From positions 1-23,986 of IMG/VR virus record IMGVR_UViG_2529292907_000023: DNA of 23,986 bases; one strand, given 5' to 3'. Below, piece by piece: positions 3,484-16,473 of this stretch. Source of the stretch: a virus. Lineage: Duplodnaviria; Heunggongvirae; Uroviricota; Caudoviricetes. The notes under the pieces were generated by a model. It saw nothing but the letters and a program-made list of their open reading frames with translations. It made no database searches and was not told the origin of the DNA. Every line of letters begins with the position of its first letter. Within the stretch, counting starts at the first letter, position 1. A program made the position numbers and the translations under genes.

Positions 3484-3699
3484 TTACTCTCCCCGCGCCG
3501 CCTTACGCCGGTCCTCTCTGATTTTGAAATACAGGTTAGTCAGATATGTCAGCAGCCCAAACAGCAGACTCCCCAGCACGCCTATTGCCGCCCACTGAGA
3601 CGGGGAAACCCTGTCCAGCAACTGCAGGAACCAGTAGCCCGTTCCCACCGCTGACGTGGTGTATGACACACCTGTTGTGATTTTTTCCATCTGGTACAT
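3484..3699 (-). CDS. S: Class II holin (pinholin), phage 21 S21-type, dual-start MYQM
   Basis: Protein [71 protein letters not shown] closely matches my recollection of S21 (…[46 protein letters not shown]); GGGAGA RBS upstream of ATG 3699; the longer ORF to 3777 would run through an upstream terminator hairpin. Confidence 0.85.
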
Positions 3700-5925: not shown

Positions 5926-5931
5926 GTCCAT

Positions 5932-5955
5932 AAGAAAGCCCCTCCGGAGAGGGGC
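5932..5955 (-). terminator. Minus-strand intrinsic terminator-like hairpin (7-bp stem, tetraloop)
   Basis: GCCCCTC-cgga-GAGGGGC; on the minus strand it is followed by TTTCTTAT. Abuts the plus-strand terminator, forming a convergent pair. Confidence 0.45.
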
Positions 5956-6151
5956 TGGAGAGTGGCGCTATGTGCCATTGCATGGTGCCGGGTGCCTCCC
6001 GGTGAATTCAGTACCAGCACCTGAATCCGCGATTATCCCATATACCTACTCGCTGATTGCCCCTCCGCACAGGGGGATTCACCATGCCAGTTTCTTTTAA
6101 CAAACTCCCCGCAAAACAGACAACTGTCAACCGTCTGAATTGTGAGACATT

Positions 6152-6191: not shown

Positions 6192-6268
6192 TGGCGCGTT
6201 GTACTGGATTCGAACCAGTGACCGATTGCTTAGAAGGCAATTGCTCTGTCCGGCTGAGCTAACAACGC
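6192..6268 (-). tRNA. argO: tRNA-Arg (anticodon UCU)
   Basis: Reverse complement GCGTTGTTAGCTCAGCCGGACAGAGCAATTGCCTTCTAAGCAATCGGTCACTGGTTCGAATCCAGTACAACGCGCCA folds as a cloverleaf (7-bp acceptor, GTTCGAATC T-loop, CCA end); anticodon loop CTTCTAA. Symbol assigned only by positional analogy to phage 933W. Confidence 0.9.
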
Positions 6269-6281
6269 AGGGTACAGATAA

Positions 6282-6358
6282 TGGACCGCCATCGAGGACT
6301 CGAACCCCGCGCAACCAGCTTCGAAGGCTGGCGCTCTATCCTGATGAGCTAATGGCGG
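6282..6358 (-). tRNA. argN: tRNA-Arg (anticodon UCG)
   Basis: Reverse complement CCGCCATTAGCTCATCAGGATAGAGCGCCAGCCTTCGAAGCTGGTTGCGCGGGGTTCGAGTCCTCGATGGCGGTCCA; anticodon stem CCAGC/GCTGG with loop CTTCGAA (U33, anticodon UCG, A37). Symbol by positional analogy only. Confidence 0.85.
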
Positions 6359-6365
6359 TATGTGA

Positions 6366-6441
6366 TGGTGGCCCTTGCTGGATTTGAACCAGCGACCTGG
6401 CGATTATGAGTCGCTCGCTCTCACCACTGAGCTAAAGGGCC
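6366..6441 (-). tRNA. ileZ: tRNA-Ile2-like (anticodon CAU, lysidine type; Met cannot be excluded from sequence alone)
   Basis: Reverse complement GGCCCTTTAGCTCAGTGGTGAGAGCGAGCGACTCATAATCGCCAGGTCGCTGGTTCAAATCCAGCAAGGGCCACCA is very similar to E. coli ileX (tRNA-Ile k2CAU) as I recall it; anticodon loop CTCATAA. Confidence 0.9.
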
Positions 6442-6490: not shown

Positions 6491-7540
6491 TCAAACGATT
6501 AAATCCTGAACTTCCCTGACTGTCTGCTCAAAACGTCCGGTCTCCAGCTCAACACCAATCGCACGACGCCCCAGTGCCATCGCCGCTTTTACCGTTGAAC
6601 CCGACCCCATGAAAAAATCCGCAACCAGATCACCAGGACGACTACTTGCGCTGATTATCTGCTGCAGCATTTCTGCCGGTTTTTCGCACGGATGTTTCCC
6701 TGGATAGTACTGCACCGGTTTATACGTCCACACATCGGTGTACGGCACCTGCACCGTCACACCGAAATACCGCCGCAAATTTTTATATTCACTCAGCAGT
6801 TCCATATACTGCCGGTTCAGCTCACTGTATGTGCTGACCAGCTGGTGGTGTGGCTTTTCCAGTTCCCCGCGCTGATGTTTCTCTTCTGCCACCCGGGCAA
6901 ACAGCGACTGTAATTTCAGATAATCGCTTTCGTTCGGTAGCTGCCACTGACTGGCACTGAACCAGTGCGGCACCATGTTTTTCTTTCCTGTGGCATCTGC
7001 AATCTGTTTTGCCGTTATCCCCAGGGCAGCGCGCGCATCACGAAAGTAAGCAATCAGCGGGGCCATCACATGCTGTTTCAGTGCCCTGCCCTTCGCCTCA
7101 TACCCGGCATCTTTCGGACGATACGGCCCCTGATAATGTTCCGCGAACAGAATGCGCTCTGTGGCGGGGAAATACGCCCGCAGGCTTTCCTTGTTGCATC
7201 CGTTCCAGCGTCCGGACGGCTTCGCCCAGATAATATGGTTCAGCACACTGAAGCGTTCACGCATCATGATTTCGATATCAGATGCCAGGCGATGACCACA
7301 GAACAGGTAAAGACTTCCGGCAGGTTTCAGCACCCGCCAGAACTGCGCCAGACACTGGTCCAGCCACTTCAGGTAATCATCGTCGCCCTTCCACTGGTTA
7401 TCCCAGCCCTCAGGCTTCACTTTAAAGTACGGCGGGTCCGTGACTATCAGGTCAACAGAATTTTCGGGTAACGACCGGATAAATTCCAGGCAGTCGGCGT
7501 TGATTAACTCACAACTGGATATTTTTACAGTATTAGCCAT
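6491..7540 (-). CDS. Orphan DNA methyltransferase (beta-class N6-adenine or N4-cytosine MTase)
   Basis: 349 aa; motif IV DPPY (LIVTDPPYF) near the N-terminus and AdoMet-binding motif I FFMGSGST near the C-terminus (beta-class order); no adjacent restriction endonuclease candidate. Confidence 0.85.
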   Translation of the reverse strand: MANTVKISSCELINADCLEFIRSLPENSVDLIVTDPPYFKVKPEGWDNQWKGDDDYLKWLDQCLAQFWRVLKPAGSLYLFCGHRLASDIEIMMRERFSVLNHIIWAKPSGRWNGCNKESLRAYFPATERILFAEHYQGPYRPKDAGYEAKGRALKQHVMAPLIAYFRDARAALGITAKQIADATGKKNMVPHWFSASQWQLPNESDYLKLQSLFARVAEEKHQRGELEKPHHQLVSTYSELNRQYMELLSEYKNLRRYFGVTVQVPYTDVWTYKPVQYYPGKHPCEKPAEMLQQIISASSRPGDLVADFFMGSGSTVKAAMALGRRAIGVELETGRFEQTVREVQDLIV

Positions 7541-9800: not shown

Positions 9801-11197
9801 AATAAACGCTCCGTTTTACTGCCCGACATGCGGTTATTGCTGTATCTGCGCGGATTGCCCGGCGTCATGGGTGTGGAAAGAACCCGGGCACTCTCCTGGT
9901 CCACAGGCAGAAAATGTCCGTTATGAAAACGCCGGTAAATGGTCCCGAGCGTGCCATTACGCTGTTTCGTGATGTTGATTTCTGCTATGCCTCTGGCCTG
10001 AGTTTCCGGGTTGTATACCTCATCCCTGTAAAGCATCAGAATGATGTCGGCATCCGCCTCGATTTCCCCGGAGTTTTTCAGGTCCGAGTTCATTGGGCGT
10101 TTATTGGGTCTGGATTCCACGCCGCGGGAGAGCTGGCTCAGAGCAATCAGCGGAAAACCGCCGGATTTTGCCAGGCTTTTAAGTCCCTTTGAGATTTCCC
10201 CCACCGCAAGGTCGTGACGCCCCGTGCTGCGGGTTTTAATCAGGCCGAGGTAATCGACCACCACCAGCGCCGTTTCCGGGTGTTTCATCCGGTGGTGCTT
10301 CGTGGTTGCACATATCTCATCAATGGTCAGGTTTGCCTGGTCCACCATCCAGATATTACGCCCCGTCATTCGTCCCACGCCCTGCGAGAAACGCGCCCAG
10401 TCTTCATCTTCAAAACGGGCAACAGACTTAAGACGGGATACCGGCATTCCACCGGCAGCAGACACCATACGTTCACCAATCTGGATGTTCGCCATCTCCA
10501 TGGTGAACAGAAGCACGCCATGCCCCTGCTCAGTCACCTTGTCGATGATGTCCAGCGCAAGTTCGGTTTTCCCCATCGAAGGACGGGCGGCAATGAATAC
10601 CAGGTCTCCGGGCTCCATACCGCCCGTTTTTGCGTCCAGTTCATCAATACCGGTCATCAGCGCCCTAGATTTCTCCAGTCCCTGATTGCGGCATTCAACA
10701 CGGTCGACCACTTCCGGAAGGACATCATCAATGTGAACCGGCTGAATGACGCCCTTTCCGGTCGACAGTGAGGCCATCATGTTCTGCGCATCCTTCAGGG
10801 CATCCTCGGCTGCTTCACAGGTATACGCATCACGTAAATTCTGTAATGCTTCAGTCAGTGTTTTTTCTGCATCACGCAGTGCGGCATTGCGCCGCAACGC
10901 TGCGACATAGTGCTCCAGTGAAGACTTCACCCAGGTTTTGCGTCCGGTGTCGGTAATCTCCGGGGCAAGTTCCGGCATCTCATTGCACAGCAGTACGGGG
11001 TCAATGACGCCGGATATGCGAGCCTGTCTGCAAATCCCCGCGTAAATATCCCGGTACTGACGCACAAAAAATACATCCGCCGGAAGTGTGGCCAGAATAT
11101 CCATCACTTCCGGATCGGCCCCACGCAGAAAAAACGCACCGATGACAGCGCCTTCCAGGTCATCGTTACGCCATGCCGGGGTGTTCTGGCTGGTCAT
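9797..11197 (-). CDS. Replicative DNA helicase, DnaB family
   Basis: 466 aa; Walker A (ARPSMGKTELALDI) and Walker B (LLFTMEM) motifs and a DnaB-like N-terminal domain; ATGA overlap with the upstream loader gene. Confidence 0.9.
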   Translation of the reverse strand: MTSQNTPAWRNDDLEGAVIGAFFLRGADPEVMDILATLPADVFFVRQYRDIYAGICRQARISGVIDPVLLCNEMPELAPEITDTGRKTWVKSSLEHYVAALRRNAALRDAEKTLTEALQNLRDAYTCEAAEDALKDAQNMMASLSTGKGVIQPVHIDDVLPEVVDRVECRNQGLEKSRALMTGIDELDAKTGGMEPGDLVFIAARPSMGKTELALDIIDKVTEQGHGVLLFTMEMANIQIGERMVSAAGGMPVSRLKSVARFEDEDWARFSQGVGRMTGRNIWMVDQANLTIDEICATTKHHRMKHPETALVVVDYLGLIKTRSTGRHDLAVGEISKGLKSLAKSGGFPLIALSQLSRGVESRPNKRPMNSDLKNSGEIEADADIILMLYRDEVYNPETQARGIAEINITKQRNGTLGTIYRRFHNGHFLPVDQESARVLSTPMTPGNPRRYSNNRMSGSKTERLF

Positions 11198-12103: not shown

Positions 12104-13096
12104 TCAGAATGTCAATTTGTTACTGGATTTACCGAATTTGTCAGACATGGCTCCCAGGCCAGCCAGGACATCGACCTGTCGCTGTCGCCCACCTCCGTGA
12201 GCGGCTGGCTGTTGCCAGTAATCTTCGAAGTGACGATCGGGTCCAAAGAACGTCGCAGCCTGCTTCACGAACTGTGTGCCGGTATTTCCTGTAGCACGTA
12301 CCCAGGCGGCATACCGCTTCACGCCATCAAGCATGGTCTCCGGTTTTATTCCCTCCCTGATACGGGCTTTCCAGGCTTTGAAGGCTGCTGACTTGGAATT
12401 GCCACCAGCACGTTTGGGATATTCCTGCCAGGCCTGTTCAAATTCCGGTGAATATTCCTGTCGGGCAGAACGCGCTGGCGCAGACGCGTCAGCGGATGCA
12501 TCAATAGTGTTTTTAGTCTCCGTTGTAATCTCTGTAGTAATCTCTGTATTTGTATCAACATTCGGCGTATCCCCTGTTCCGTTATGACGTCGGGGGGTGT
12601 TCCGTTTTAACGTAATAGCTGTATCGCTGATTGCATTATTGCTGTTACTTTCTGGCGAAACAGAAGAAGGTGTGGTGATGGCCGCAATTGCCTGTGGGTT
12701 GATCCCGACAAACAAAATATTGCTGCATTTCACCCCATCGAGCATTTCCACCGTGCGTAAATCCAGAGTAATAAACCCTGCATCGCGCAGACGCTTCAGC
12801 GCATCTGCGGTTTCCCTTTTCCCGAAACCAAACTGCTCAGCAAACGCCTGGTAGCTTCTTTGCAGTTTGTCGCCCTGAAAACGCTTGCGATATCCCAACA
12901 ACGCTCCGGTGTGCTCATCCCTGACCTCTGTCGGGCGGTACCAGTAAACGATCTCTGAAAGCAGAGCGATAGCCGTCGCATCCGGACGCCCACTGGGTAG
13001 TCGAATATATTTCCACCAGTTCGCAGGTGTAACATTGCCGGAAATATTAATTTGACCAATAGCCATAACTTCCGGTGTGGGGGCATAACGGCTCAT
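12104..13096 (-). CDS. Replication initiation protein (lambda O-like / replisome organiser) with internal low-complexity linker
   Basis: 330 aa; strong RBS AAGGAGG; position directly upstream of the DnaC/DnaB pair; N-terminal DNA-binding-like region, central TEITTEITTE/DASADASA linker encoded by tandem DNA repeats. Confidence 0.6.
   Translation of the reverse strand: MSRYAPTPEVMAIGQINISGNVTPANWWKYIRLPSGRPDATAIALLSEIVYWYRPTEVRDEHTGALLGYRKRFQGDKLQRSYQAFAEQFGFGKRETADALKRLRDAGFITLDLRTVEMLDGVKCSNILFVGINPQAIAAITTPSSVSPESNSNNAISDTAITLKRNTPRRHNGTGDTPNVDTNTEITTEITTETKNTIDASADASAPARSARQEYSPEFEQAWQEYPKRAGGNSKSAAFKAWKARIREGIKPETMLDGVKRYAAWVRATGNTGTQFVKQAATFFGPDRHFEDYWQQPAAHGGGRQRQVDVLAGLGAMSDKFGKSSNKLTF
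12505..12610. repeat. Candidate replication origin: tandem iteron-like repeats inside the O-like gene
   Basis: GTAATCTCTGTA x2 in tandem (12524-12547) with a partial third copy, followed by an AT-rich stretch and two copies of TGTTCCGTT (about 12576 and 12598). Confidence 0.4.
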
Positions 13097-13613: not shown

Positions 13614-13804
13614 GGACGCACCTCCGCCGTAGTTACGTATTTAACCGGGCTACCTTTCATTGAGATGGTTTCACACATCTCTGCCGCTTTCAGTTCCGCT
13701 GTTTTTCTGGATTTATAGCGACGGTGCCAGACAGATACATCCGTGCGAACTGATACATCGTTTCTGTATTCCGTAGTGGAGATGATGATTTCGTAACTAA
13801 TCAT
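13610..13804 (-). CDS. Hypothetical protein (64 aa)
   Basis: 4-nt overlaps with neighbouring ORFs. Confidence 0.45.
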   Translation of the reverse strand: MISYEIIISTTEYRNDVSVRTDVSVWHRRYKSRKTAELKAAEMCETISMKGSPVKYVTTAEVRP

Positions 13805-14364
13805 GGGCGAACCTCCTTGTCAGAACCATTCAGCCTGGAATCAACAAGTGCAGCGCCAAAAACAGCATCACCAACACGGTCGTACAGTTTGCTAGCCAGC
13901 GGAGATTCAACGGCCTTAAGCATTGGATAAAGCTGGCTTGTCCAGATTTGATGGATTTCACGCAAATGCAGGTATACGCCTCTGGCGTTTCGTGCGACAG
14001 CTGACATATCAGACGCATCGGCACCTGATAAACTCTTCTCCATCAGGTTAAAGGCGTTGATGTATGCCTCTTTGAACCGGGCAGCACGTTTACCAGTGAA
14101 GCCCATGGCAAGAAACGCAAAACCGTCGCGGGTGATTTGGTAACAAGGGAGCTTGCGTGTACCACCGTTCGGTTGATTTACCGAAATCGATGTCTCCGCA
14201 AAATTGCGGGCACAAAACTCAGGGGAACAATCCAGAGTGCGGATCTTTTTCAGCACATCGTCATGACGCTTGGAGAAGAAGTTGGCAACAGCCAAAGAAG
14301 TGGTAACGGCCTGGCCGTTGTCAATGGTGATTTCAGGTTGAGTGAGGGCTGGGATCGTAGCCAT
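13801..14364 (-). CDS. Rha-family phage regulatory protein (Phage_pRha-like domain)
   Basis: From ATG 14364 with GGAGG RBS: QAVTTSLAVANFFSKRHDDVLKKIRTL … YQITRDGFAFLAMGFTGKRAARFKEAYINAF resembles the Rha domain consensus as I recall it. The ORF stays open in frame to 14664 (Gly/Ala-rich, no RBS), so the N-terminus is uncertain. Confidence 0.55.
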   Translation of the reverse strand: MATIPALTQPEITIDNGQAVTTSLAVANFFSKRHDDVLKKIRTLDCSPEFCARNFAETSISVNQPNGGTRKLPCYQITRDGFAFLAMGFTGKRAARFKEAYINAFNLMEKSLSGADASDMSAVARNARGVYLHLREIHQIWTSQLYPMLKAVESPLASKLYDRVGDAVFGAALVDSRLNGSDKEVRP

Positions 14365-14748
14365 GATGGCAGCCTCCGTTGACAGTGAAAAACTTCCACC
14401 ACCGGAAACGCCAATTTCACTGGTGGTGAACTGGACGGGGTTGGCGTAACCGGCGTCAACGGAGACCGGCGCACCTTTCGGTGCCCCCGCCCAGCCCACC
14501 ATAATCTGGATGTGAGCAAATGCGGACGATAAAAAAGACGCTGACGCGTCATACATCGCCGTTGACAATTTCAGGACGCCAATCCCGGCACCCGCTTTAT
14601 AAGGTGCAGAGACAGTGTAACGTCCCGAAATTGCAGAATCAATATTTGGTCTTGAAATGATCATATAGCTGCTGATATCTTTAGAACTGTTCTTGGATGT
14701 TTCAGAGCCGTTTTATGCGAAACAGCTCCCCGTTATTGATGTTGAGTG

Positions 14749-14774
14749 AGCCGGGTTACTCCCGGCTTTTTTTT
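14749..14774 (+). terminator. Plus-strand intrinsic terminator antisense to the early-right operon (oop-like RNA terminator)
   Basis: GCCGGG-ttact-CCCGGC followed by TTTTTTTT on the plus strand, abutting the stop codon of the minus-strand gene 14774-15481. Confidence 0.7.
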
Positions 14775-15481
14775 CACCGCTGCCAACCAATAACCTGAAA
14801 TAACCCCATTTTCGGGTGATACCAGCGAGTCCCTCGCGGTTCTGCTTCCTCCATAACCCGATAAAAAGCAGCCATAAACGGTTCCACAGCAACAATTGCG
14901 CGACGTGACAACAATCCGTCCGGCGTCATGAACTCATGGGTGTCTGTAGGAATCTGATAGGCGTTCACCAGATTGCGGCATTTATCATCTGACAAACCGG
15001 TTTTTGCTTTCAGTTGGCGATATCCGGCATAGCCCTCACGAATAGTGCCCTTTTTAATTTGCTCGACTGTTTCAGCAACGTGGCTGACTTTTTCTTCCAC
15101 CTGAGTGATACGTTTCTGTTGGCGAACGGCTTCAAGAGCCATCGCGGCAACCATTTCGATTTCGCTCATTGGCTTACGGATCTGTTCTTCCAGTTCGCGC
15201 CAGCGATCTACCAGGCGAGCTGTGAATTCAGGACAGAGCTGTGCGACGACAATGATGCTGTCGCGCTTACCTCGTTCACCTTCGAATACATACGCGCTAG
15301 AAAATCGGCGAGGCCCAAGTGATTGTTTATTCTCAATTTCCACAGTCTGTGGAAATTGGATGATTCCCTTTTTAGCCAGTGTTTCAATAGTTCTCTTAAC
15401 ACTATCTGGTCGGCTTCCCACCAGCTCTGCGATCTCAACGCTGGTCATGGATGCTTTGCCGTTAAAAATTGCGGTGTTCAT
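14774..15481 (-). CDS. Phage regulatory protein, probable Rha/antirepressor-like N-terminal DNA-binding domain
   Basis: 235 aa; AGGAGA RBS; N-terminal MTSVEIAELVGSRPDSVKRTIETLAKKGII and later DSIIVVAQLCPEFTARLVDRW resemble the Rha/ORF6N-type motif; second gene of the rightward early operon. Confidence 0.45.
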   Translation of the reverse strand: MNTAIFNGKASMTSVEIAELVGSRPDSVKRTIETLAKKGIIQFPQTVEIENKQSLGPRRFSSAYVFEGERGKRDSIIVVAQLCPEFTARLVDRWRELEEQIRKPMSEIEMVAAMALEAVRQQKRITQVEEKVSHVAETVEQIKKGTIREGYAGYRQLKAKTGLSDDKCRNLVNAYQIPTDTHEFMTPDGLLSRRAIVAVEPFMAAFYRVMEEAEPRGTRWYHPKMGLFQVIGWQR

Positions 15482-15705
15482 TGTTGGTCTCCTGTGGGCT
15501 TGTCATCTTCTGTATTCGCTAGACTTGGGTGTGTATATGGAATGCTCGGATCCAGATGACAAAGAATGGCAACATCCTCCGGAACACCTCGCGTTTTCCA
15601 CTTTCCAACACCTTGACTGCCACGAGGCCTTCCTTTCTTTGGGAACCTGCGACCAATAGCGGCATTGGTTTTAAATTGAATTTTTAATATTTCATAAAGG
15701 GTCAT
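15478..15705 (-). CDS. Hypothetical protein (75 aa) in the cro position (first ORF of the early-right operon)
   Basis: Divergent from cI across a 110-bp operator region; basic region GRRFPKKGRPRGSQG; weak RBS; no HTH I can recognise, so a Cro identity is not supported by sequence. Confidence 0.4.
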   Translation of the reverse strand: MTLYEILKIQFKTNAAIGRRFPKKGRPRGSQGVGKWKTRGVPEDVAILCHLDPSIPYTHPSLANTEDDKPTGDQQ

Positions 15706-15816
15706 TCTTTAGTCTCACACCAGATACTTTGTTATCCAACGATGTTAACCACAGGAACCCAAAGTATCAAGAAATTCTGTTACTTTAGTATCAACAGCCA
15801 TGAGAGGAGAAGAAAA
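15706..15816. promoter_or_regulatory. oR-like divergent promoter/operator region between cI and the early-right operon
   Basis: Three copies of a GTATCA-core motif: GATACTTTG (15723-15731, inverted), CAAAGTATCAAG (15760-15771), TTAGTATCAAC (15784-15795); the first two form an inverted repeat 28 bp apart. Confidence 0.55.
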
Positions 15817-16473
15817 ATGAAGTCTTTAGGTGAACGTCTCATCAACGCACGGCAAAAAGCTGGGTTAACACAAGATGCGTTGGCTAAAAAAGCTGGGGTC
15901 ACCAGAGTTGCAATCAGTAAAGCCGAGCAAGGCCTTACAAAAAGTTTCAACGGTGACACCCTTTTTAAAGTTGCAGCTGCACTGCGGTGTTCACCGCAGT
16001 GGCTTCAGAACGGAGATGAAAAAGATAAGCATTGGGAAAATAATGTTAAGAGCTGCCCACAGAGAGACACAGCACACTCTTACCCTGTAATTAACTGGGT
16101 TCAGGCAGGATTATTCGCAACTTCTGGTGATGACTACAACATGTATGATCAGGATAATTGGAGGCATTCTGTAAAATACGCTGGTGAGAGGGGGTTCTGG
16201 CTGGAAGTGCACGGAGACTCAATGACTTCGCCCGTAGGAATAACATTTCCTGAAGGAATGTCGATCCTTGTCAACCCAGATAAAGAAGTTTTTTCAGGGT
16301 GTTACGTCATCGCCAGAAAAAAATCTACCAATGAAGCAACATTCAAAAAATATATTTCTGACATGGGAAAGGCGTTTCTAAAGCCCCTTAATCCACAATA
16401 TCCAATCATAGAAATGGACAATGATTGCGAAATAGTAGGTGTTGTGGTTGATGCCAGGTGGGATATTTTCTGA
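15817..16473 (+). CDS. cI: CI-type prophage repressor (XRE HTH N-terminus, LexA-like S24 autopeptidase C-terminus)
   Basis: ATG 15817 with GAGAGGAGAAG RBS; HTH (LTQDALAKKAGVTRVAISKAEQG); Ala-Gly cleavage-site candidate (VQAGLF); catalytic Ser in GDSM and downstream Lys (IARKK). Confidence 0.85.
   Translation: MKSLGERLINARQKAGLTQDALAKKAGVTRVAISKAEQGLTKSFNGDTLFKVAAALRCSPQWLQNGDEKDKHWENNVKSCPQRDTAHSYPVINWVQAGLFATSGDDYNMYDQDNWRHSVKYAGERGFWLEVHGDSMTSPVGITFPEGMSILVNPDKEVFSGCYVIARKKSTNEATFKKYISDMGKAFLKPLNPQYPIIEMDNDCEIVGVVVDARWDIF

Follow-up and report, generated by a model that had tools for sequence, protein, structure and literature searches.

Does the early-right operon of a lambdoid Escherichia coli (E. 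coli) prophage, which is read from the minus strand, contain a small RNA gene on the plus strand, and is such an RNA related to oop of phage lambda? The question is raised by a non-coding spacer of 109 bp (14665-14773) in a 23,986-nt stretch of viral DNA (IMG/VR record IMGVR_UViG_2529292907_000023, positions 1 to 23,986; the whole stretch is called the window here). The window covers the genes for immunity and replication in a lambdoid E. coli prophage and shows 99% identity to a prophage of strain E300082. The spacer lies between a Rha-like gene and an isrK-C4-antirepressor module, and an initial annotation had placed a candidate oop-like antisense small RNA in it, based on a plus-strand terminator and a promoter-like sequence upstream. 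The signals described below suggest that a plus-strand transcript of ~85 nt probably exists, which would resemble oop in layout without belonging to its family. The following features define the candidate unit and its two neighbors:

14652-14657, plus strand: -35-like hexamer TTGAAA, found by scan
14673-14681, plus strand: extended -10 element, composed of TG (14673-14674), one base and TATCTT (14676-14681), 18 bp from the -35 hexamer, found by scan
14688-14774, plus strand: predicted RNA of ~85 nt, deduced from promoter and terminator
14689-14701, plus strand: conserved 5' block GTTCTTGGATGTT, from alignments
14705-14728, plus strand: internal hairpin GAGC-C-GTTTT-ATGC-GAAAC-A-GCTC, from folding
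14748-14774, plus strand: intrinsic terminator with stem GAGCCGGG/CCCGGCTT, loop TTACT and T8, from sequence, scan and folding
14774-15481, minus strand: Rha-like winged-helix gene (235 aa) upstream of the candidate unit, with weak Pfam matches to Phage_pRha and HTH
13801-14664, minus strand: 'ash' and Rha antirepressor open reading frame (ORF), with Pfam matches to Phage_ASH (aa 16-111) and Phage_pRha (aa 121-210)

Promoter, terminator and predicted RNA

The terminator (stem and loop 14748-14768, core stem 14750-14766, T8 at 14767-14774) is present as the initial annotation had described it, i.e., GCCGGG-TTACT-CCCGGC followed by T8 at 14750-14774, and it is far from what chance would give. 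Only one site on the two strands of the 24-kb window combines a perfect stem of 6 bp or more with a directly following run of 7 T or more, compared to an expected mean of 0.003 in 300 first-order Markov simulations of the window. The hairpin has eight pairs, six of them G-C, a folding energy of -14.5 kcal/mol, and ranks second among the terminator-like sites found by pattern scan in 10 kb. T8 is the longest plus-strand T run in the window, where only two plus-strand runs reach T7. Its last T is the complement of the A in the TGA stop codon of ORF 14774-15481 (minus strand), and the terminator thus abuts this stop codon inside a minus-strand operon, as had been claimed. On the plus strand, a G+C-rich hairpin directly precedes a U-tract, which is not the case on the minus strand; because the minus-strand tail after the hairpin reads UCACUCAAC, the hairpin would act as a terminator for the plus strand only.

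The spacer occurs in three diverged sequence types, A (that of the window), B and C, and the terminator stems are invariant in ~100 viral contigs, in metagenome contigs and in five of five divergent E. coli prophage loci that were aligned. The one exception, GAGCTGGG, is the sole stem variant and creates a G-U pair, which is paired on the plus strand only. Six variants of the loop were found (TTACT, TCACTC, CCACTG, TCACTA, TTACTA and TGACTA), and the T-run varies from T6 to T8 across the sequence types.

The TTGAAA hexamer and the TGaTATCTT element with their 18-bp spacing were recovered by pattern scan where the initial annotation had seen them. The promoter match (9/12) gains weight because the TG is present, because the site lies 93 nt upstream of the T-run end, and because it is conserved. 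All three types share TTGAAA; of 24 unique sequences, one has TTGGAA instead. The -10 hexamer reads TATTTT in types B and C. Differences between types affect 1 of 14 promoter positions, as compared with 8 of the 16 remaining positions of the spacer (Fisher p = 0.017). Moreover, the identical scan recovers po and t_oop of lambda, with an equal score of 9/12 and the TG present. The candidate promoter is interwoven with the start of the 'ash' ORF: TTGAAA falls in 'ash' codons 3-5 and is seen only in element-bearing phages, the promoter spacer contains the 'ash' ATG (14664-14662), and the candidate -10 region occupies the place where the 'ash' Shine-Dalgarno sequence GGAGGTG is seen in other contexts.

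From these signals we infer a 5' end 6-8 nt past the -10 element and a 3' end within the T-run. The predicted RNA has a minimum free energy of -24.5 kcal/mol (z = -2.1) and a layout of free 5' block, internal hairpin, U-rich linker and terminator. Within the 5' block, GTTCTTGGAT is common to types A, B and C and is the only conserved part of the RNA body, which is otherwise highly divergent (~28%) and contains indels. Types B and C form a different hairpin at the position of the type A internal hairpin; folding was done per sequence type, since indels in loop and body shift the hairpins out of register between types. The variants L110, L134 and L256 of the internal hairpin retain pairing on the plus strand only, with G-U pairs in L110 and L256, whereas the L128 variant pairs on the minus strand only, so that G-U asymmetry gives a mixed picture of the functional strand. 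At its 3' end, the predicted RNA overlaps the coding sequence of the Rha-like gene by 1 nt. An Rfam search with the candidate RNA (14688-14774, plus strand) brought no family near its gathering score, including isrK (RF01394) and C4 (RF01695).

Two further observations concern the same stretch. A palindrome, AGAAC-T-GTTCT (14683-14693), lies exactly at the predicted RNA start; it occurs in type A only and is absent from types B and C. A plus-strand small ORF (14697-14798, 33 aa) was rejected as a gene: it crosses the terminator, its peptide is not conserved, as the frames differ between types, and it has no Pfam match.

The isrK-C4 neighbor and the spread of the spacer

The initial annotation had overlooked the isrK-C4 module in ORF 13801-14664, just downstream of the spacer in the operon. 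It comprises the following elements:

14614-14642, minus strand: isrK promoter PisrK, with TTGATT (14642-14637), a 17-nt spacer, TACACT (14619-14614) and +1 at 14607, read from the sequence
14531-14607, minus strand: isrK-type (seqA-like) RNA, Rfam RF01394, 61.6 bits versus a gathering score of 50, model positions 1-77 of 77
14419-14506, minus strand: C4/CI/STnc1160-type antisense RNA, Rfam RF01695, 81.4 bits versus a gathering score of 45, model positions 1-87 of 87

The first position of the isrK model falls on 14607, and TTGATT and TACACT, which are identical across 190 PisrK instances in IMG/VR, presumably act as the isrK promoter, by analogy to PisrK of Gifsy-1 (PMC4825925). The isrK-type RNA has its own leaky terminator, a hairpin (14550-14537) followed by a T-run, as found by scan. 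The module follows the order known from P1 immI, P4 seqA-CI and Gifsy-1, with PisrK, isrK, leaky terminator, C4-like RNA, leader ORF and antirepressor (PMC4825925; PMC10111431), and comparison with Gifsy-1 (PMC4825925) places the equivalent of the orf45 AUG at 14502. One C4 hairpin covaries between phages (GCACC/GGTGC versus GAGCC/GGCTC), an exchange that is non-synonymous in the ORF. The candidate promoter is arranged back-to-back with PisrK: the -35 boxes are 9 bp apart, and the predicted starts ~81 bp.

Of 5426 complete E. coli genomes, 237 contain the spacer; it also occurs in 9 of 50,697 phage records searched with blastn, among them six Stx2a-converting phages and one Stx2d-converting phage, and in ~90 IMG/VR contigs as well as metagenome contigs. 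Carriers of the element include E. coli O111:H- 11128 (NC_013364.1, 2433076-2433218), ATCC 43886 and phages of the Stx2_EH2201 type. In every dataset searched it lies between the same two neighbors; no other genomic context was found by blastn of the phages and E. coli genomes, nor in scans of IMG/VR and metagenomes that were anchored on the promoter side or the RNA body. Kept in types A, B and C are TTGAAA, the 18-bp spacing, TG-n-TAT(C/T)TT, GTTCTTGGAT, GTTGAG(Y)GAGCCGGG...CCCGGC and T6-T8; variable are the promoter spacer, the distance from the -10 element to the 5' block (a 6-nt indel), the RNA body and the terminator loop. This is the pattern expected of a working promoter and terminator, seen in few independent lineages and a single context.

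Both neighbors also occur without the spacer. In Yersinia, Providencia, Proteus, Trabulsiella, Shigella and Atlantibacter, the next gene comes directly after the homologue of the Rha-like gene, and these loci have neither the hairpin nor isrK/C4, which indicates that the hairpin belongs to the spacer and not to the gene. In Stx1 and Stx2 phages with the same 708-nt gene, a DUF4222 gene follows 2 nt later and ends inside the -35 box of PisrK. Of the 190 PisrK instances in IMG/VR, ~80 are preceded by DUF4222; in others, the preceding gene ends in a stop codon that overlaps the 'ash' ATG (ATGA), and GGAGGTG provides a strong Shine-Dalgarno sequence. Non-coding DNA with a reverse terminator is found upstream of PisrK only in the 87 spacer-bearing instances, and in all other contexts a coding gene abuts the promoter. 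Since neither the gene homologues nor other isrK modules carry the hairpin, the spacer together with the first 'ash' codons (TTGAAA) constitutes a distinct, optional insert. Regarding the loci without the spacer, the TGA stop codon of DUF4222 lies inside the PisrK -35 box TTGATT in SfV (L022), L025, L026 and ~80 IMG/VR contigs, and GenBank often fuses the DUF4222-PisrK region into one long 'antirepressor' ORF in another frame.

Relation to known small RNAs and competing explanations

oop and sar are convergent small antisense RNAs of phage immunity regions (PMC12197685), and OOP of BTP1 is another (PMC7067206). In several respects the candidate is laid out like lambda oop: it is a small unit (~85 versus 77 nt), convergent with pR and directed toward cro and cI; it follows the second pR gene, ahead of the replication genes; its sequence signals comprise a sigma-70 promoter with a TG-extended -10 element scoring 9/12 and a strong intrinsic terminator; and in both cases the promoter extends over the beginning of the ORF that comes next downstream. 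By scan, lambda po reads TTGAGT-17-CATAAT (9/12, TG present), and the distance from -10 to terminator is 86 nt, versus 93 nt here. However, local alignment to the po-oop-to unit gives a score of 16, versus 15.8 +/- 2.4 for shuffled sequences, and the comparison with the lambda locus thus reveals no homology. The partner gene differs as well, being Rha-like with a winged helix and without a cII domain. In lambda, the terminator (703-730, locus positions) lies inside cII (461-754), and oop overlaps cII by ~56 nt rather than by the single nucleotide found for the candidate. Finally, po overlaps O, whereas here PisrK, isrK, C4, the ash/Rha ORF and three small ORFs come before the O-like gene, so that the likeness of position noted in the initial annotation holds for the convergence with pR but not for adjacency to a replication gene. 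What stands of the proposed oop-like unit is a self-contained promoter and terminator directed against the early-right operon. Because sequence similarity and a cII-type gene are lacking and the coding overlap is 1 nt, the candidate is not classed as an oop family member; it shares the layout of oop and would be oop-like in action at most.

An equally close analogue, judged by layout alone, may be sar of P22, an RNA of 68-69 nt that represses ant (PMC12197685). Like the candidate, it is made within the operon just upstream of the antirepressor and convergent with its promoter. Unlike sar, which covers the ribosome-binding site of ant, the candidate starts ~24 nt upstream of the 'ash' ATG and covers none. 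IsrK-STnc1160-orf45-AnrP of Gifsy-1, c4-icd-ant of P1/P7 and seqA-CI of P4 (PMC4825925) match the immediate neighbor of the candidate, and the candidate itself differs from the isrK/C4 families in lying on the other strand, upstream of PisrK, and in having no Rfam match. No conserved complementarity of the candidate RNA to isrK, C4 or the orf45 leader was found. A divergent partner RNA is not mentioned in the two sections of the Gifsy-1 account covered here (PMC4825925).

The explanation that we tentatively favor is that the unit acts in cis, damping expression into the antirepressor and replication genes in the manner of oop or sar; it is judged the most likely because the unit is convergent with pR, back-to-back with PisrK and straddles the 'ash' start codon. 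The sigma-70 extended -10 promoter (14652-14681) would start the RNA near 14688, and the strong one-way terminator would end it at ~14770-14774, yielding a non-coding RNA of ~85 nt. RNA polymerase bound at, or firing from, the candidate promoter might interfere with read-through from pR into the antirepressor and replication genes. In addition, the RNA would be perfectly complementary to the intercistronic part of the read-through transcript and could form an 85-bp duplex with it, which RNase III could cut, a step modeled on oop and the cII mRNA in lambda. The terminator would block transcription from continuing antisense through the Rha-like gene and cro, and in sense into cI.

Several points weigh against this explanation. 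In contrast to the terminator, which is well beyond chance, the promoter match of 9/12 alone is not (16 sites in 10 kb versus 13.6 expected), and it combines an 18-bp spacer with a weak -10 hexamer. The predicted RNA would cover no ribosome-binding site, neither isrK nor C4, and no coding region apart from the 1-nt overlap. A conserved 5' block would be superfluous for a purely cis-antisense role, and in type A the internal hairpin forms better on the minus strand, with 10 bp including G-U pairs (z = -3.1 to -3.8, versus -0.6 to -1.6 on the plus strand). With three types from few lineages in a single context, the conservation possibly reflects hitch-hiking with conserved flanks. A literature search with the hairpin sequence found no papers and no expression data.

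Less probably, the same plus-strand RNA might act in trans, as an Hfq-type small RNA whose conserved, single-stranded 5' seed, GUUCUUGGAU, pairs with host or phage mRNAs; its convergent position would then be incidental and its gene moron-like. Such a role would explain why, of the whole RNA body, only the 5' block is kept across the three types, which the cis-antisense role does not need. The architecture is also of the Hfq type, with 5' block, internal hairpin, U-rich linker and a terminator with 7-8 U; a long U tail after the hairpin (T6-T8) is found in all three types. Pathogenic E. coli commonly encode Hfq small RNAs in their prophages (PMC4104026), and AgvB, AsxR and others resemble the candidate as short RNA genes in lambdoid intergenic gaps with their own promoter and a long-U terminator (PMC4104026). 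However, there is no homology to these anti-sRNAs, which keep their 3' part and vary the 5' end, opposite to the candidate. A conserved target was not found in phage DNA, which the search covered; the 98 element-bearing contigs contain no second copy of a seed complement, and the element never occurs outside its one context, as a freely mobile moron would be expected to. Pairing between the 5' block and the orf45 leader (ACAUCCA, a 7-nt match upstream of the AUG) was rejected, since chance accounts for a match of this kind and element-bearing phages do not conserve it.

A functional plus-strand RNA might also be absent altogether, with the two hairpins acting on the minus-strand pR transcript. 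There they would either protect the 3' end of the cro-Rha mRNA or mark a place of processing or pausing before the isrK module, and the T-run (an A-run in the mRNA) and hexamers would be incidental. That in type A the internal hairpin folds better on the minus strand is consistent with this, since G-U pairs of its 10-bp stem become A-C mismatches on the plus strand, as are the L128 variant and the start of the first hairpin 8 nt past the stop codon of the Rha-like gene. Nevertheless, this explanation appears doubtful: it leaves the conserved T6-T8, -35 hexamer, TG and -10 hexamer unexplained, four variants (L110, L127, L134 and L256) pair on the plus strand only, and the tail UCACUCAAC is unable to support intrinsic termination. 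Two other kinds of site were considered: a nut/boxB-like site on the minus strand was rejected, as the loop varies and no boxA was seen, and a Rho-dependent terminator is not supported, the C/G ratio of only 1.1-1.5 giving no rut signature.

Just as doubtful is that the unit is an insulator only. Here, the AT-rich region upstream of PisrK would fire divergently, and the terminator would shield the Rha-like gene and cro from antisense and cI from sense transcription, the RNA being a by-product. The back-to-back promoters with -35 boxes 9 bp apart, a strong one-way terminator at the first possible place ahead of the upstream gene, and the poorly conserved RNA body with its indels agree with such a function. 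A by-product would not be expected to keep GTTCTTGGAT and a hairpin at the same position in three types, though, and other phages place a coding gene straight against PisrK without any insulator.

Lambdoid genomes are mosaic and the element is confined to one junction, so it might be a non-functional relic of recombination, e.g., the orphaned terminator of a lost plus-strand gene. This is improbable, given that stem, T-run and promoter hexamers have been kept while the body diverged by ~28%, that the variation falls mainly in the loop and the promoter spacer, and that the element is retained in 237 E. coli genomes and in Stx2a phages. A true lambda oop homologue displaced by mosaic recombination would share the orientation to pR and cI, the place upstream of the replication genes, the size and the promoter and terminator quality, but it can practically be dismissed in view of a similarity not beyond chance, the missing cII gene, the 1-nt overlap, the isrK/C4/ant module and three small ORFs that intervene before the O-like gene, and blastn matches in 50,697 phage records to nine same-context phages only.

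The surrounding operon and the role of a third RNA

The early-right operon on the minus strand has the order cro-position gene, Rha-like gene, ORF 13801-14664, three small ORFs, O-like gene and DnaC-like gene. The remaining genes with coordinates are:

15742-16473, plus strand: cI-like repressor of the LexA family
15478-15705, minus strand: small gene at the cro position
12104-13096, minus strand of the operon: O-like gene

The Rha-like gene is named 'Roi' or 'DNA-binding protein' in phage records. Inside it, at 15334-15358, CAATTTCCACAG and CTGTGGAAATTG form a perfect inverted repeat with 12-nt arms separated by 1 nt, which could be a protein-binding site or an RNA hairpin. The PGAP start of the cI-like repressor is a downstream ATG (~15817) instead of 15742, a difference that concerns 15706-15816 and results in a cI-cro intergenic region of ~110 bp; operators were not identified there. 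A search for a LexA box, or for an operator that the candidate unit would share with the cI-cro region, found none. The top terminator-like site of the 10-kb scan, with 12 pairs, is at 17147-17120 on the minus strand, within the region of leftward (plus-strand) genes. Elsewhere in the window, at 5926-6116 and 6192-6441 (both minus strand), a STnc100 small RNA (139 bits) adjoins three tRNA genes, Arg-tct, Arg-tcg and Met-cat. We take this group to resemble the late-region tRNA cluster of Stx-type lambdoid prophages.

The 'ash' region deserves attention in its own right. The isrK and C4 genes are buried in codons 20-82 of ORF 13801-14664, which PGAP calls 'Rha family phage regulatory protein' or 'ash family protein', and the Pfam Phage_ASH match sits right over them. 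At the amino-acid level, the linker between isrK and C4 is hypervariable. Other phages, however, provide the 'ash' ATG with a strong Shine-Dalgarno sequence and couple it to the upstream gene by ATGA, and the region may encode RNA and protein alike. Tandem PisrK/ash copies, two or three in number and exactly 656 nt apart, are present in some IMG/VR prophage contigs:

L028: copies at 6500 and 7156
L029: copies at 3527 and 4183
L031: copies at 9903, 10559 and 11215

The locus thereby exposes an annotation problem, in that two well-supported RNA genes are hidden in an ORF named 'ash' or 'Rha family protein'.

Judged by its sequence signals, the candidate is plausibly a new, unvalidated plus-strand RNA of the convergent class found in phage immunity regions. 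More speculatively, and with considerable doubt, the antirepressor switch, including that of Stx2a-converting phages, might be run by three small RNAs, the third being the undescribed ~85-nt RNA divergent from PisrK, which would couple pR read-through to the isrK/C4 decision, or reach host mRNAs via GUUCUUGGAU as an Hfq small RNA expressed in the lysogen. In Gifsy-1, the isrK-C4-antirepressor module triggers prophage induction (PMC4825925). The candidate unit guards the entrance to a module of the same kind in the early operon of E. coli prophages, several of which are Stx2a-converting. If the unit is real, it would be a second worked case of a convergent RNA in the style of oop or sar, with other genes around it, and would add an extra layer of RNA control to the decision that releases phage and Shiga toxin.

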